7,586 nt of DNA from Escherichia coli (lineage in GTDB: Bacteria; Pseudomonadota; Gammaproteobacteria; Enterobacterales; Enterobacteriaceae), in the NCBI RefSeq assembly GCF_003334815.1, contig NZ_QOWO01000067.1. One strand, 5' to 3'. The notes under the pieces were generated by a model, which searched no databases, was not told where the DNA came from, and saw nothing but the letters and a program-made list of their open reading frames with translations. Position 1 is the first letter of the stretch. Each line of letters begins with the position of its first letter. Both the position numbers and the translations under genes were made by a program. Shown here piece after piece: positions 1 through 6,260 of this stretch.

Positions 1-156
1 TTAATGAAAACACTCGATGAACTGAACCAGTCGGGAAAAGGGAAAGTGTGGTTTGCGGGGCGAGGAACCGCCCCTGAATGGCAAATGAAACGGGAAATGT
101 TGAGTCAGTGTTATACAACTAAATGGCGAGATATTCCCCTGGCCAGGCTGGGTTAG
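1..156 (+). CDS. Possible 3' end of an unidentified gene entering from upstream of the window (partial)
   Basis: Frame 1 is open from position 1 to TAG at 154..156, reading ...GKGKVWFAGRGTAPEWQMKREMLSQCYTTKWRDIPLARLG*. It ends 1 nt before the convergent parR-like stop at 158..160. Too short for the supplied ORF track; I do not recognise the family. Confidence 0.25.
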   Translation, partial: LMKTLDELNQSGKGKVWFAGRGTAPEWQMKREMLSQCYTTKWRDIPLARLG

Positions 157-157
157 T

Positions 158-574
158 TCAGTCATCTCCGAACATATTTTCAGCGTTTCTTCTGGTCTGG
201 TCTTCACCGTCATTTCTCGACAGACTCTGCTCTGTAAGAGGAGTACTGCAATCCACAGACGTATGGAGACCAGATTGTTTTTCCAGTAATTCAAGCAATT
301 TCTTTTCAACCGAAAAAGCACCTGGTATTACGCTGGAAATCACCTTATTAATATCATCCAGAGTCGTATTTTCTGTCAGTAACTCCGATATCAGCAAAGG
401 AAGACGTTTATCTATAGCTGCAAACGCCGCACCAGTAACTAACATCGCGCGCATGAAACGTCCCCGCTCCTTCAGTTTTTCATTTGCAATGAGCTCATCT
501 GCTATCTTATCTCCTGTCCGTTCATCCGGGAAAAGTTCAAATGAGCAGCGTCTGGATTTATTTTCATCACTCAT
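158..574 (-). CDS. parR: ParR/StbB-like centromere-binding adaptor of a type II (actin-type) partition system
   Basis: 138-aa ORF. The N-terminal region (RRCSFELFPDERTGDKIADEL...ERGRFMRAMLVTGAAF...LLISELLTENTTLDDINKVI) follows the pattern I associate with the ParR family N-terminal ribbon-helix-helix, and it has an acidic C-terminal tail. ATG at 574..572 overlaps the parM stop (ATGAGTGA, 8-nt overlap). GGTGGT-type Shine-Dalgarno about 9 nt upstream. Confidence 0.8.
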   Translation of the reverse strand: MSDENKSRRCSFELFPDERTGDKIADELIANEKLKERGRFMRAMLVTGAAFAAIDKRLPLLISELLTENTTLDDINKVISSVIPGAFSVEKKLLELLEKQSGLHTSVDCSTPLTEQSLSRNDGEDQTRRNAENMFGDD

Positions 575-1547
575 TAGTCACACCACCTTTCATTTTTATC
601 ATTCCCATGACTAAATCAAACTGCGGGGATGAGCTCAGATAAAAGCGCTCATCAGGAACCTTAGTCAGGTTCTTCACAGCCTCGGCCACAATTTCAGCCC
701 CACCACCAACACACATTACATGTGTATAGTCGGTGAAACGGCTGATGACATCATTAACTCGTTTAATAAGCAACTTCTGCCGTTCATTGATAACATTAAT
801 GATAGACTCACGCTGTTCAGCATTATAAATGCGACGGGAAAGGTAGTCAGGTTCATTACGGTGCACAATGATATTGTCAGCCTGGAATGAGCTCACTCTT
901 GTATTAGCATGTACAGCCATCTGTTCCTTAACCCCGGATGTAATCAGGGACACGCCGATATTCGGATCACACCAGGTTTTTGTAATCCCTGTCATTTTGC
1001 TACGAACATGCGACACATCAAGAGTTGTACCACCGAGATCTACGATCAAAAGGGATTCATCATCCTCAAGCCCCGCAAGAACACTGAAACCAGCGGGAAT
1101 ACTTTCAGGAAGAACGGAAACACTGCGAATAACAAATGCATCACTCCCCTGCACCCGTACTTCACGCATCACATTTTTTTTCTTTCTTTCAATGTTTTGC
1201 TTATTTTTCTGATTGTTGGCGTCAAGGTATTCAGAGATCGGCAATGTGACGATGACATCAACAGGCTGCGCTTTCAGGCCGGTCTGCTGTAGCGCATGCT
1301 GAATGGCCACAACATTCACATCACTGTACTGATAGCGTGTTTCAGTCGTTACGACAGCATCAGCACTTAATGGATCAAATGAAAACTTCTCGCCGTCGAT
1401 CTCGTAATTAGCCGGAGCAGCATCATCCAGTAAACTAAAAGACCATTCCGGTTTAAAGCTGTTAGGGCTGATTAACGTTTTCACGTCACCATCCTCCAAC
1501 CAGGCAAGTTTAATGTTGGTAGAACCATCATCAATAAAGATTTTCAT
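567..1547 (-). CDS. parM: ParM/StbA-like actin-type plasmid segregation ATPase
   Basis: The track ORF 567..1616 contains MKIFIDDGSTNIKLAW..., the phosphate-1 DxGxT/S motif typical of the ParM/StbA N-terminus, plus VDLGGTTLDV (phosphate 2) and CVGGGAEIV (adenosine motif). I place the start at the ATG 1547..1545 (M24 of the track ORF), which has GGAG 8 nt upstream and gives 326 aa, a typical ParM length. The stop overlaps the parR start. Confidence 0.9.
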   Translation of the reverse strand: MKIFIDDGSTNIKLAWLEDGDVKTLISPNSFKPEWSFSLLDDAAPANYEIDGEKFSFDPLSADAVVTTETRYQYSDVNVVAIQHALQQTGLKAQPVDVIVTLPISEYLDANNQKNKQNIERKKKNVMREVRVQGSDAFVIRSVSVLPESIPAGFSVLAGLEDDESLLIVDLGGTTLDVSHVRSKMTGITKTWCDPNIGVSLITSGVKEQMAVHANTRVSSFQADNIIVHRNEPDYLSRRIYNAEQRESIINVINERQKLLIKRVNDVISRFTDYTHVMCVGGGAEIVAEAVKNLTKVPDERFYLSSSPQFDLVMGMIKMKGGVTNE

Positions 1548-1960
1548 AACCAGTCTCCGTTGCTCATAAACAAATAGAAAAAACAAACATGCTTCATACA
1601 TGCAATGTATATTCAATTATAATGAAAAAACGGTCTTTCTGAAAGGACAAATGCAACATAAAAACACGATAAATTGCATGTACATTGTACACACAACTTT
1701 AAGACCAGAGGAAATCATAGATACAAAAACATTATGAAGGTTATATGTGACACATAAATGCAATATAAAAACATCGTGGACATCATGGTTCAGGTTAAGG
1801 GAAAAGGAATGAAATGGTGAAACTGAGAGGAAAGGAAAGCGGTGACGAATCATGTCACCATAAACAGAAAGATGTCTAATGGGGACTCTTTAGGTACGTG
1901 AAGAATCCCCATAACGCATTTAAAAGACACACATCAGATACCCTTAAGGTATCCGATAGT
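1548..1960. promoter_or_regulatory. parC-like centromere/promoter region upstream of parMR, also the downstream flank of the ParA/RHH pair
   Basis: AT-rich non-coding stretch with repeated ATGCAA/TTGCAT units (around 1600, 1650, 1673, 1758). The unit AAATGCAA(C/T)ATAAAAACA occurs twice (about 1649..1667 and 1756..1774). Palindromes: ATACATgcaATGTAT near 1596..1610, GGTGAC-N7-GTCACC at 1839..1857, GATACC-cttaa-GGTATC at 1937..1953. The position matches a type II centromere/promoter; exact binding sites are not determined. Confidence 0.55.
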
Positions 1961-2269
1961 TTATTGACCTATTGCACCATCACGTTCAAGCTTCTCTCTT
2001 ATAGCCTCAATAATATATGAGCTAAAATCCAGAGATGTTTTACTGGTCGCTTTAAGTTCCGCATGAGCTTCAAAATACGACAGCGGTATGGCCTTAAGAT
2101 TCTTAGCCTTCGTCCTGGCAGCCACGGGACGACCTGAAACTTCCTCTGCACCTTCATTTGGCTGAGACGGGGCTGTTGCTGTTACGGCAGAAGAAGAAGT
2201 TTGTAATCTGGCAGAATCCACCAGGTTTTTCAGTTTTTCAGCCTGTGCACTAAATTTCGCTTTGCTCAT
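1961..2269 (-). CDS. Small ribbon-helix-helix-like DNA-binding protein, candidate ParG/ParB-type partner of the upstream ParA-like ATPase
   Basis: 102-aa ORF directly downstream of the ParA-like gene on the same strand. The C-terminus (AIPLSYFEAHAELKATSKTSLDFSSYIIEAIREKLER) fits a beta-strand/helix/loop/helix RHH pattern, preceded by a low-complexity, probably flexible N-terminal tail. Shine-Dalgarno is weak and an 86-bp gap separates it from the ParA-like stop, so the assignment is an inference from context. Confidence 0.55.
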   Translation of the reverse strand: MSKAKFSAQAEKLKNLVDSARLQTSSSAVTATAPSQPNEGAEEVSGRPVAARTKAKNLKAIPLSYFEAHAELKATSKTSLDFSSYIIEAIREKLERDGAIGQ

Positions 2270-2355
2270 GAGATAACCCAGGATGTTTGTTAGATACTTA
2301 AAAGATATCCATTAAAAGCCCAAAGGATACTATATGGATACCCAATAGACACACC

Positions 2356-3000
2356 TTACTGTTTGTTATTTTCAATCAGATGATTGATTTCTTCGATCAG
2401 GGCAATAACTTCCTTACCTCCTGCCGAATAGCGCCCATGAACAGACTCAGTGATTCCCATCCCAGTCTCAATGACATCCTCAAATTCTGCACGAGCAGAA
2501 ATGCGGCTCTTCATCAGCTTCAGATGTTTGAACGATGGCAGGATTGCATCAAGCTTAGGGAATTTCTTCTTGTTAGGATTAACTTTACAGAGATACAGGT
2601 GAGCAGTTATATCGGTCCCCATGATAGAGCTGATTTCGTCCAGTACTCCATCAAAATGCATCAAACCAATACGTTCAGTCAGGGAGTCTTTTGAAGGGAC
2701 AATAACGCAGTCTGCAAAGGCAATCGCAGTACGGGTAAGATCTGAGTCAAATCCCCCACAGTCAATAAGTAACGTCTTATCGCTGTTCTTGTAGGGAGTC
2801 ATAATTTCGATTAACTCATCCACTGTTTTGGGTACTTTCACGGAAATTTCTTTTCCTTCAGGTCTCAGCCCCAGAATGATAGAAAGCCCGGTATGAGTAT
2901 CCAGATCAACTGTATCAGACTTCATTTCACCAACAATGTTTACGGATGAAGTTGTCTTACCCACACCACCTTTGGGATGCGTATTAGCAATAACAGGCAT
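2356..3000 (-). CDS. parA: Small ParA-family (ParF-like, type Ib) deviant Walker-A partition ATPase
   Basis: Deviant Walker A KGGVGKTT near the N-terminus, LLIDCGG and a VIVP Walker-B-like hydrophobic strand. Start placed at ATG 3000..2998 (M23 of track ORF 2356..3066), with GGAG 7 nt upstream, giving 214 aa, the size class of type Ib ParA/ParF proteins that lack an N-terminal HTH. Confidence 0.8.
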   Translation of the reverse strand: MPVIANTHPKGGVGKTTSSVNIVGEMKSDTVDLDTHTGLSIILGLRPEGKEISVKVPKTVDELIEIMTPYKNSDKTLLIDCGGFDSDLTRTAIAFADCVIVPSKDSLTERIGLMHFDGVLDEISSIMGTDITAHLYLCKVNPNKKKFPKLDAILPSFKHLKLMKSRISARAEFEDVIETGMGITESVHGRYSAGGKEVIALIEEINHLIENNKQ

Positions 3001-3179
3001 AGTGTATCTCCAGAATCCACATGTAATACCCATAAAGACCCCATAAGACACCTTTCGGATATCCAAGAGGTACTCAATAGATGTTTTTTTACTCTATACC
3101 GGTCCTGCATGTCAACAGAATATGAAATACCGATAATATATCCATGAGATATCCGAAAGGGATTTAAAAAAGTCAGAGC
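3001..3179. promoter_or_regulatory. Promoter/operator region upstream of the ParA-like gene
   Basis: Non-coding gap between the recombinase stop (3180) and the ParA-like start (3000). Contains the palindrome GGATATCC (3057..3064) and GATATCC (3148..3154), related to GGATAC/GATACC motifs on the other side of the operon. Confidence 0.4.
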
Positions 3180-3959
3180 TTATGGAATTCTTTTGAGCAT
3201 AGACACCGCATCGGACTCAGGCATCGAAAACTGCACCCGGTGCCGTGCAGCCACATCCAGTGCAAACACCTTCGTGTAGACCTCCGTTGAGCTGATGGAC
3301 TTATGCCCCATCAGGCTCTGCAGGACCTTCAGCGGTATACCGGCATACAGCATATGCATCGCATAGGAATGGCGGAACGTATGTGGCGTGACCGGGACAG
3401 AGAACGTCACACCGTCAGCGGCAGCGGCGGCAACCGCCTCCCCAATCCAGGTCCTGACCGTTCTGTCCGTCACTTCCCATATCCGCGCTTTCTCTGTCCT
3501 GCCTGTTCGTTTATTACGCCGTTCCATGGGGATTTTCAGTGTGGCCACCATCGTCTGCAGCTGGCTGACGTACCAGGCGTCGGAGAGCGGAACCAGCCGG
3601 TGAGTCTGCTGACCGGCGGGCATTCTTCCTGCCGTCCTGGCGGCTTTTTCCGTCCGTTGTTTCAGGGTCGCAAGCTGCACAAACGGATACGGAGGCGTGA
3701 GCGAAAAATCCCCCCGCGTCAGCGCCAGTGCTTCATTAATGCGCGCACCGGTGTTCCACAGTGTGGCCAGCAGCATCTTGCGGCGCAGATCCGGGACGTA
3801 ATGGAGCAGGGCGCTCACTTCAGGGGCCAGCAGGTATTTGGGCAGTTCATCATGAACCATCGACATCTGGCGGAGTGCCAGCGCTGCCGGATAATCGATG
3901 GCAACAGGAAGCTGAGCGGCATCCCGGGCATGGTGGATCGGTGCCGGCAGGTGCTGCAT
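3180..3959 (-). CDS. Tyrosine site-specific recombinase (plasmid resolvase/integrase family, ResD-like)
   Basis: The C-terminal region carries the tyrosine-recombinase box II signature HTFRHSYAMHML...LMGHKSISSTEVYTKV (His-x-x-Arg, then His, then the catalytic Tyr), and an ARINEAL-type box I arginine sits earlier. Start placed at ATG 3959..3957 (M52 of track ORF 3180..4112), 1 nt after the stop of the upstream ORF, giving 259 aa. Overall it resembles plasmid multimer-resolution recombinases of F-like/I-like plasmids, as recalled from memory, not searched. Confidence 0.85.
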   Translation of the reverse strand: MQHLPAPIHHARDAAQLPVAIDYPAALALRQMSMVHDELPKYLLAPEVSALLHYVPDLRRKMLLATLWNTGARINEALALTRGDFSLTPPYPFVQLATLKQRTEKAARTAGRMPAGQQTHRLVPLSDAWYVSQLQTMVATLKIPMERRNKRTGRTEKARIWEVTDRTVRTWIGEAVAAAAADGVTFSVPVTPHTFRHSYAMHMLYAGIPLKVLQSLMGHKSISSTEVYTKVFALDVAARHRVQFSMPESDAVSMLKRIP

Positions 3960-4410: not shown

Positions 4411-4495
4411 CATGCGATAACGTCATCCATCATCACTGCCCTTACCGTCACTCCGTCTGATAACATCATGCCGTTATCATCATCACCATGATAAC
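4411..4495. repeat. GATAAC/CATG repeat cluster, candidate recombination site or operator for the adjacent recombinase operon
   Basis: GATAAC at 4416..4421, 4459..4464 and 4490..4495, inverted GTTATC at 4473..4478, and CATCATCAC twice (about 4429..4436 and 4479..4486). Three GATAAC copies abut CATG. Lies 40 to 120 bp upstream of the operon start at 4374. Confidence 0.35.
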
Positions 4496-4811
4496 AAGCA
4501 TCCATATAACCACGCCGTTAAATTACCGGAGAGCCGTTTCCGTCAGATCCGACTTTTCGGAATATCACAACTTTCCGGAAGTGTACCACGCTGAGGAAAT
4601 AATCATATCGCTGTTTTCCGCCCCTGCGCGGCGCATCACAGGTCAGGGAGATGACACAACATATAGTGTCATCAGCAGCTGAATCCGGCACCACATGTTG
4701 TGCTGACGGGAGGTGGCGTTGTGTGGGGGGAGAAGAAGATCCGTAACCGCCGGAAACCGGATCTGCGCGGCGGGAAACGGGCAAGTGATATGGTAATTGA
4801 GCAATACACAC

Positions 4812-6192: not shown

Positions 6193-6260
6193 TTATTGTT
6201 ATTGATTATTATTATCATGCTGTGATTATGTTATCACGCACCGGTACACGATAACAATAA
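6193..6260. promoter_or_regulatory. Inverted-repeat-flanked promoter region upstream of the immunity gene
   Basis: Perfect 10-bp inverted repeat TTATTGTTAT (6193..6202) and ATAACAATAA (6251..6260), separated by 48 bp that contain two TGATTAT-N-TTATCA(T/C)G direct repeats. An AAGGAG Shine-Dalgarno lies 7 nt before the ATG at 6273. Confidence 0.4.

Follow-up and report, generated by a model that had tools for sequence, protein, structure and literature searches.

The closest described counterparts of the partition locus considered here, a run of four genes encoding a Walker-type pair (YefA and YegA) and an actin-type pair (ParM and a ParR-like protein) on a 7,586-nt stretch of Escherichia coli DNA (NCBI RefSeq assembly GCF_003334815.1, contig NZ_QOWO01000067.1; the whole stretch is called the window below), are found on plasmids pB171, R1, pSM19035, and pESBL. 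In pB171, the type Ib ParB reportedly binds the central parC1 region and cross-regulates the type II operon, par1. The parC centromere of R1 is composed of 11-bp-phased repeats that lie on both sides of the promoter in a clean array of five plus five units. The delta/omega system of pSM19035, one of the inc18 plasmids, consists of a small Walker ATPase and a ribbon–helix–helix (RHH) protein, omega, that binds contiguous 7-bp repeats; its repeat sets precede the ATPase gene and also occupy the region between the two genes, ahead of the RHH gene. Omega is, in addition, a regulator of copy-number and toxin–antitoxin promoters.

Among plasmids of incompatibility (Inc) group IncI1, the par locus of pESBL has been defined experimentally (Daniel et al. 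2020; PMC7602700). Walker-type and actin-type systems also occur together in the double modules of R27 (IncHI1) and, as ParAB and StbAB, in Shigella pINV, and one of two par systems dominates in R27 and SCP1, according to the passages of PMC13245405 that summarize these plasmids. The same survey of PLSDB, in which systems were identified by BLAST against reference proteins from pB171 and pSM19035, gives type I-RHH plus type II as a frequent, previously reported combination (971 accessions). For the locus in the window, we consider it likely that the four genes form two self-contained partition cassettes, arranged head to tail, in the resD–impB slot of an IncI1 backbone.

Genes, repeat arrays, and spacer of the locus

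A first-pass annotation of the window had described, all on the minus strand, a small ParA gene and an RHH-like gene followed head to tail by a ParM/ParR pair, and the four open reading frames bear this out. From high to low coordinates, and in R64-style names, the order is resD, yefA, yegA, 'parA', and 'parB', with the four par genes placed between resD and impB. Over bases 1–3300, the window matches many complete plasmids of E. coli and Salmonella, typed IncI1 or IncI-gamma/K1, at 100% identity; the archetype plasmid R64 has the same gene order at 45383–48225, and the window is an IncI1 (R64/ColIb-P9-type) backbone. R64-style records swap the type labels of the two pairs, in that yefA is called a 'type II' partitioning protein and ParM/ParR are called 'type I'. 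The features of the locus are the following, the two conserved neighbors of the par slot being listed last.

3001..3179, minus strand: predicted yefA–yegA promoter/operator and upstream repeat array, with two heptad blocks around −35/−10-like elements
2356..3000, minus strand: yefA, encoding a 214-amino-acid ParA-like Walker-type ATPase of type Ib size without an N-terminal DNA-binding domain
2270..2355, minus strand: yefA–yegA gap array, 86 bp, about five heptads phased at 11 bp
1961..2269, minus strand: yegA, encoding a 102-amino-acid candidate centromere-binding protein whose C-terminal domain is modelled as RHH
1865..1960, minus strand: array downstream of yegA, short YegA-type repeats overlapping two of the hairpins
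1830..1960, minus strand: three RNA hairpins after yegA, with plus-strand stems at about 1932–1958, 1872–1919, and 1840–1860 and T-rich tails after two of them
1551..1830, minus strand: candidate parC-like centromere and parMR promoter, with a promoter-like site, TTGCAT units, and a 20-nt direct repeat
567..1547, minus strand: parM ('parA' in R64 annotation), encoding a 326-amino-acid actin-like segregation ATPase
158..574, minus strand: parR-like gene ('parB' in R64 annotation), encoding a 138-amino-acid adaptor protein of the ParR/StbB family
3180..3959, minus strand: resD-like tyrosine recombinase, the left neighbor, also found beside the IncF copies and the pB171-type locus
1..156, plus strand: 3′ end of impB (Y-family polymerase), the right neighbor, convergent with parR

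YefA has the attributes by which type Ib ParA proteins are recognized, namely a small Walker-type ATPase domain without an N-terminal DNA-binding domain and a deviant Walker A motif, HPKGGVGKTT, in which KGGVGKT occupies residues 10–16. It matches the NCBIfam model ParA_partition over its full length (E=1.7e-14) with a score of 53.9, which is below the curated equivalog cut-off of 180, and the PHROG 'ParA-like partition protein' family (E=9e-23); matches to the Pfam models MipZ, AAA_31, and CbiA are weak. ParM aligns with R1 ParM structures at 53% identity over 316 residues (E=6e-104) and with a PHROG partition protein family (E=3e-56), and the adaptor gene expected of a type II system follows immediately, its start overlapping the end of parM by 8 nt. 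The encoded ParR-like protein matches Pfam Plasmid_stab_B (E=1.1e-27) and, over residues 1–83, the pB171 ParR structure 2JD3 (E=2e-6).

The partner of YefA is less easily classified. A family alignment of YegA reveals a conserved N-terminal segment (residues 4–20, with conserved K12, K14, and R21), a variable, low-complexity linker (24–48), and a strongly conserved C-terminal segment of ~45 residues (about 56–98). In the AlphaFold2 model, the N-terminal segment is a helix, the linker is disordered, and two helices make up a C-terminal unit that is predicted with confidence, and the modelled C-terminal dimer resembles RHH dimers such as single-chain Arc; structural matches of the YegA pseudo-dimer model include VirC2, TraY, and omega. 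Searches of Pfam, NCBIfam, PDB sequences, and PDB profiles gave no match to YegA. For this protein, which the first-pass annotation had called RHH-like, the RHH fold is a prediction of AlphaFold models only. NCBI-derived sources name the 100-amino-acid YegA family 'molecular chaperone GroEL', which is a misannotation.

Short-repeat arrays flanking the operon are a further attribute of type Ib loci, and they are present here as three arrays of 11-bp-phased heptads, which in gene orientation follow a degenerate RRTATC consensus and often read GGATATC or GGGTATC. Upstream of yefA, heptads of the GGATATC/GAGTACC type with 11-bp spacing form two blocks (3122–3160 and 3043–3075) that flank the hexamer TTGACA, and a perfect 13-nt inverted repeat is found at 3051–3063 and 3148–3160. 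The gap between yefA and yegA contains, in gene orientation, GGGTATC, TAGTATC, GGATATC, AAGTATC, and GGTTATC. Immediately after the yegA stop codon, the inverted pair GGATACC-TTAA-GGGTATC (1937–1954) is followed by degenerate 11-bp units. We place the putative yefA promoter between the two upstream blocks, at a −35 element TTGACA (3115..3110) and a weak −10-like GTAAAA (3092..3087); the same layout, TTGAC(A/T), 17 nt, and (G/T)TAAAA between two repeat blocks, is found in homologous loci from Salmonella (L010), Pectobacterium (L013), and Klebsiella (L015). A consensus promoter scan did not call this site.

For the phasing of these repeats we relied on motif-free autocorrelation instead of a weight-matrix heptad scan, which was built from the proposed sites and is partly circular. 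The lag-11 z-score is 5.0 upstream of yefA, 3.2 in the yefA–yegA gap, 2.4 in 1865–1960, and 2.8 in 1551–1830; at lag 22, it is 3.0 in the gap and 2.6 in the downstream array (1865–1960). Heptads matching RRTATC are ~9-fold enriched in the cassette (11 of the 29 matches in the window fall within 306 bp, where 1.2 are expected), for regions and a motif that were picked after inspection of the sequence. The whole-window count of GATAYC is 15 vs 6.9 expected, a number equalled or exceeded in 8 of 200 shuffles and not significant alone. A scan of the whole 86.6-kb plasmid pSH146_87, which is 100% identical to the window over positions 1–3300, located heptad clusters upstream of yefA and in the yefA–yegA gap only, besides one cluster at 83.1 kb, which we considered as a fourth array and rejected because it is irregular and lies inside a coding region.

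Between the two pairs, the first-pass annotation had reported a repeat-rich region of about 410 bp, which would flank one system downstream and serve the other as promoter/centromere. The spacer (1548..1960) measures 413 bp; direct repeats, inverted repeats, and a promoter-like site are present in it, and it appears to be divided as proposed, with YegA-type repeats and hairpins at ~1830–1960 and the parC-like promoter region at 1551–1830. The order from yegA to parM is YegA-type units, three hairpins, the TTGCAT/promoter region, and the parM ribosome-binding site; several inverted repeats are present besides the 20-nt direct repeat (1649–1668 and 1756–1775). Terminator-like calls fall at 1958..1932 and 1860..1840, and the hairpin region has an RNA folding energy of −45.2 kcal/mol (z=−5.1 vs shuffles), with no Rfam family detected in the window. 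The hairpins are probably terminators or insulators between the cassettes.

In the parC-like region, the promoter-like site TTCAGA-16-TATAAT (1643..1616) agrees with the consensus at 10 of 12 positions, and TTGCAT-containing 11-bp units and the 20-nt direct repeat lie on both sides of it. Four of the seven TTGCAT copies in the window are inside 1600–1763; the total count is at chance and the clustering alone is of note, this cluster being the only one on the whole 86.6-kb plasmid. The units are degenerate (periodicity z=2.8), and in a relative from Pectobacterium (L013) the parM promoter is surrounded by clear direct repeats of 11 bp (CTCATATTGTT). The partly circular weight-matrix scan identified no strong YegA-type heptad inside 1551–1830. 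Judged from its sequence, the spacer looks like the junction of two different sets of cis-acting sites, with no sign of a shared centromere.

The promoter/parC core, at window positions 1600–1700 and likewise in L019, L020, and L022–L026, is a sharp hotspot of divergence, with 16–18% mismatches vs IncF copies in which the four par genes are 99–99.7% identical in nucleotides. In an alignment of eight sequences, variable columns make up 20% of the spacer vs 2–4% of the genes. This hotspot could be a recombination patch or could reflect selection on centromere/operator specificity.

Taken together with the behavior of known partition systems, this architecture leads us to infer the following mechanism. 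In cassette 1 (3179..about 1865), of type Ib, YegA dimers would bind the 11-bp-spaced RRTATC heptads in the three arrays, which would both build the partition complex and repress the yefA promoter; the conserved N-terminal segment of YegA would stimulate the YefA ATPase, and nucleoid-bound YefA-ATP would position plasmid copies by the usual ParA gradient mechanism. In cassette 2 (1830..158), of R1-like type II, ParR would bind 11-bp units flanking its own promoter, forming parC, and would cap ParM filaments, which would push sister plasmids apart. The hairpins after yegA would probably end the first transcript, so that the 413-bp spacer would be the place where the two sets of cis-sites meet, and the two systems would be expected to act redundantly or additively.

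Homologous loci and module combinations

The tandem arrangement is not rare; it belongs to an ordinary, long-sequenced IncI1-type backbone, both of its components are of known kinds, and double par loci are established. The tandem unit, including the spacer, is present in about 1080–1110 PLSDB records, and sampled copies are carried by IncI1, IncI-gamma/K1, IncK2/Z, and IncFIA/FIB/FIC plasmids. In the comparison with related plasmids that the first-pass annotation had called for, the tandem order is kept in >1000 sequenced IncI1, IncIgamma/K1, IncK2/Z, and some IncF plasmids, including R64.

Homologues of YefA and YegA were compared from Salmonella (L008 and L010–L012), Pectobacterium (L013 and L014), Klebsiella (L015–L017, and L007 with 45% ParA identity), and Vibrio (L009, 39%). 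All of these loci consist of parA, a repeat-filled gap (77–95 bp, L007 to L017), a small gene with the conserved C-terminal domain, and a downstream array. In seven homologous loci, lag-11/22 periodicity is found in nearly all of the equivalent non-coding segments, with z up to 9.2. Close relatives have repeats of the GGATATC type, whereas those of the 45%-identical Klebsiella plasmid read GGAWTCC and those of Vibrio TGnATAT; the repeat sequence shifts along with the small protein, which is the pattern expected if the small protein reads the repeats. YefA is 82–84% identical to its homologues (dN ~0.09–0.11, dS saturated), and for yegA dN is far below dS, which indicates purifying selection on yegA and likewise on yefA.

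The downstream array of the relatives is ~200–250 bp long, abuts the 3′ end of impB, and reaches a lag-11 z of 9.2. We infer that in the IncI1 arrangement the R1-like ParMRC cassette sits between a shortened version of this array and impB. Other combinations are found elsewhere. In several relatives the YefA/YegA module lies beside replication genes and is the sole par-like module within the ~4–5 kb flank, and in the Klebsiella plasmids no ParMR was found within the fetched flanks of YefA/YegA. In Salmonella Rep3-type plasmids, YefA is 82% identical to that of the window, the ParM partner is 39% identical and closer to the pB171 type, and a umuDC operon lies between the two cassettes. In Pectobacterium, where YefA is 84% identical, the partner is a ParM with 52% identity, encoded 1.1 kb away. 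YefA/YegA and ParMR are accordingly spaced by 410 bp, by 1.1 kb, or, where umuDC intervenes, by 2.2 kb. In one IncF copy, an IS66 insertion has eliminated parMR, and yefA–yegA is still intact. The presence of YefA/YegA with three different ParMR lineages, at varied distances, or with none, together with the IS66 loss, argues for independent modules and not for a shared centromere. As classified by homology, these loci show that the pairing of a type Ib with a type II system recurs.

Several further observations concern the ParMR cassettes and the slot. A 221-bp piece (window 100–320) composed of the impB and parR 3′ ends is 99% identical in many IncF-type plasmids without the rest of parMR, and it appears to be the relic of a deleted ParMR cassette. 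On the Salmonella plasmid contig L010 (8549–9193), the ParR-like partner is 214 amino acids long and two separate stretches of it align to the same part of the ParR-like protein of the window, which suggests that the ParR N-terminal domain is present in it twice. The slot from resD to the imp/umu genes and leading region contains different partition cassettes in different plasmids (the window, pESBL [L005], L010, L013, L015, and the pB171-type IncF plasmid L018), the variants being type Ib and II in tandem, type Ib and II divergent, type Ib and II split by umuDC, YefA/YegA alone, and the pESBL-type Ib cassette alone. This variety suggests that the par slot is a hotspot for the exchange of maintenance modules. 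Farther from the slot, the right part of the window encodes colicin Ia and immunity genes.

Alternative readings and significance

A number of observations weigh against the proposal of two self-contained cassettes. The heptads are degenerate, and their count in the whole window is not above chance, with only clustering and phasing exceeding it; the downstream array is short and weakly periodic (lag-11 z=2.4). Tandem Repeats Finder run on 1500–3250 detected no array, only an 8-bp chance repeat inside yegA, a result we attribute to repeat units that are too degenerate for this program. The −10 element of yefA is poor. YegA shares no sequence relationship with any solved RHH protein, a Foldseek search with YegA returned no match, confidence was high for only one of the five pseudo-dimer models of YegA, and no beta strand was called by DSSP. 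The searchable literature yielded no experiment on the R64-type yefA/yegA or the R64-type parMR. Finally, by analogy with R27 and SCP1, where one system dominates, an equal contribution of the two systems here is unlikely.

This last analogy leads to the alternative that survives best, which we regard as possible but clearly less probable than two contributing cassettes: a single cassette is effective in E. coli or Salmonella, and the other is a weak backup, is specific to a host or condition, or serves mainly as a regulator. Besides the dominance summarized for R27 and SCP1, there are IncI1 plasmids, pESBL being one, in which this slot contains just one type Ib locus, and a different one, and both the relatives with YefA/YegA alone and the natural IS66 deletion of parMR are examples of life with one module. 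The state of preservation of the unit weighs against this alternative. The four genes are intact, their proteins are 98–100% identical across the eight copies compared from several Inc groups, the unit is present in ~1080 plasmid records, the ratio of nonsynonymous to synonymous substitution rates (dN/dS) is <1 for yefA, yegA, and parM, and both cassettes keep their repeat sets.

We think it improbable that the systems are coupled by cross-talk of the pB171 kind, with the spacer serving as a shared centromere/operator in which YegA binds in or near parC and regulates parMR, or in which ParR uses the YegA array. Such coupling would fit the short distance between the end of the YegA-type array and the parC-like repeats (only about 35–200 bp), the inheritance of the tandem unit as one block across IncI, IncK/Z, and IncF plasmids, and the precedent of ParB binding at parC1 described above. 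It is opposed by the position of the three hairpins between the two repeat sets, by the lack of a strong heptad within 1551–1830, and by the combinations in which the YefA/YegA module occurs: its ParMR/parC partners come from three unrelated lineages and lie at widely varying distances, and some copies have no such partner. The possibility that YefA and YegA are not a partition system at all but a ParA-like and RHH pair for another DNA transaction, such as a VirC1/VirC2-like relaxosome accessory or a global repressor, could be raised from the VirC2 and TraY structural matches of the YegA pseudo-dimer and the YefA score below the ParA_partition cut-off, but it is very improbable given that the genes are ~20 kb from nikA/oriT and beside resD (or beside rep genes in relatives), that a homologue is on a plasmid typed non-mobilizable, that repeat clusters confined to the cassette are at odds with a plasmid-wide regulon, and that gene order, protein sizes, and flanking arrays are those of the type Ib loci pESBL and pB171 par2.

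Three aspects of the locus appear to be undescribed: the YefA/YegA lineage with its candidate RHH protein, the three-array layout that includes an intergenic array, and the repeated partnership with different ParMRC cassettes. We found no functional study of YefA/YegA in the searchable literature, a search that older key papers fall outside, and our claim of novelty is limited accordingly. More speculatively, and with considerable doubt about the whole, we propose that YefA/YegA is an uncharacterized type Ib lineage whose hallmark would be a three-part centromere including an array in the gap between the ATPase and centromere-binding-protein genes; that its repeated combination with unrelated ParMRC cassettes in enterobacterial plasmids would come from an advantage of joining Walker-type positioning to actin-type pushing; and that the unusually fast divergence of the parC/promoter region (16–18% vs ~0.5% in flanking genes) would be due to selection on IncI and IncF plasmids that share a cell to avoid partition incompatibility.

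In E. coli and Salmonella, plasmids of IncI1 and related types count among the major carriers of genes for extended-spectrum beta-lactamases (ESBLs) and AmpC, and they need maintenance modules in order to persist. We found a single IncI1 partition system that has been defined by experiment, that of pESBL; it differs from the R64-type cassette, and the par functions of the classical IncI1 backbone therefore appear to be experimentally uncharacterized. The present analysis provides concrete predictions of binding sites and a natural series of module combinations with which redundant, additive, or host-specific roles of type Ib and type II systems may be approached.

Comparison with known partition systems

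In combining Walker-type with actin-type systems, the locus resembles R27 and pINV, whose Walker-type systems probably differ from YefA/YegA. With regard to the PLSDB survey (PMC13245405), PLSDB contains 977 records with a pB171-type ParR at 95–99% identity. Given that this number is close to the 971 accessions of the survey and that YegA has no similarity to pB171-type ParB, we suspect that R64-type plasmids were left uncounted as double. More generally, surveys that class systems by similarity to a reference ParB may score roughly 1000 such plasmids as type II only, because no family model covers YegA and databases list it as 'GroEL'.

Like delta/omega of pSM19035, the yefA/yegA cassette consists of a small Walker ATPase with a candidate RHH partner and has 7-bp repeats upstream of the ATPase gene and between the genes, and omega is among the structural matches of YegA. 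The two differ in that omega acts on further promoters, whereas no further repeat cluster was found on the 86.6-kb plasmid that was scanned; in addition, they share no sequence similarity, and the heptads of the window are one helical turn apart, whereas those of omega are contiguous.

The pESBL parABS locus is closer in setting. It belongs to the same plasmid group, lies beside impB, and encodes a small ParA and a centromere-binding protein of ~100 amino acids without a recognizable family, with repeat arrays upstream and downstream. It is nevertheless of another lineage (ParA 24% identical, centromere-binding proteins without similarity), and it is a single type Ib cassette, which lacks both an array between the genes and a ParMR pair next to it. 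Its arrays are made up of 8-bp GATAACAA units that follow each other contiguously, in place of 11-bp-phased heptads, and no contiguous arrays of GATAACAA-type octamers were found in the yefA/yegA cassette. The pESBL ParA type is itself common in PLSDB. Elsewhere in the window, GATAAC palindromes are located upstream of yedA–resD (4416–4497; TGATAAC-N8-GTTATCA at 4458–4479, with more copies at 4416 and 4490) and also, as TGTTATC-N14-GATAACA, ahead of the colicin immunity gene (6229–6256). In sequence they are similar to GATAACAA, the parS octamer of pESBL, although they do not form contiguous arrays, and they may be operators for some regulator.

The second cassette is similar to ParMRC of R1/R100 in the 53% identity of ParM, in the order of candidate promoter/centromere, parM, and parR, and in the 11-bp-phased repeats on both sides of a promoter-like site. 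In contrast to R1, the repeat units in the window are degenerate and of the TTGCAT type and do not form a clean array of five plus five, and the ParR-like protein is closest among solved proteins, and only distantly, to pB171 ParR.

The comparison with pB171 was made with a plasmid locus (L018) whose ParR shares 98.8% identity with the pB171 ParR of known structure. Its gene order, parB and parA leading away in one direction and parM and parR in the other, agrees with the divergence of the pB171 operons that the first-pass annotation had described, and it differs from the window in that the operons diverge from a shared central region instead of following each other on the same strand. The proteins are not orthologous (ParA 19%, ParM 37%, and ParR 30% identity, with no detectable similarity between the centromere-binding proteins), and for this reason we rejected the idea that the tandem locus is a simple inversion of the pB171 locus. 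The spacer of the window gave no sign of shared repeats of the kind found in the pB171 central region. What the two loci have in common is the organization: a type Ib system (par2, ParA/ParB, in pB171) and a type II system (par1, ParM/ParR) side by side, repeat arrays on either side of the type Ib operon, and the same backbone slot, with ccdAB–resD on one side and an impB remnant, umuD, dinI, DUF1281, and a methylase on the other.

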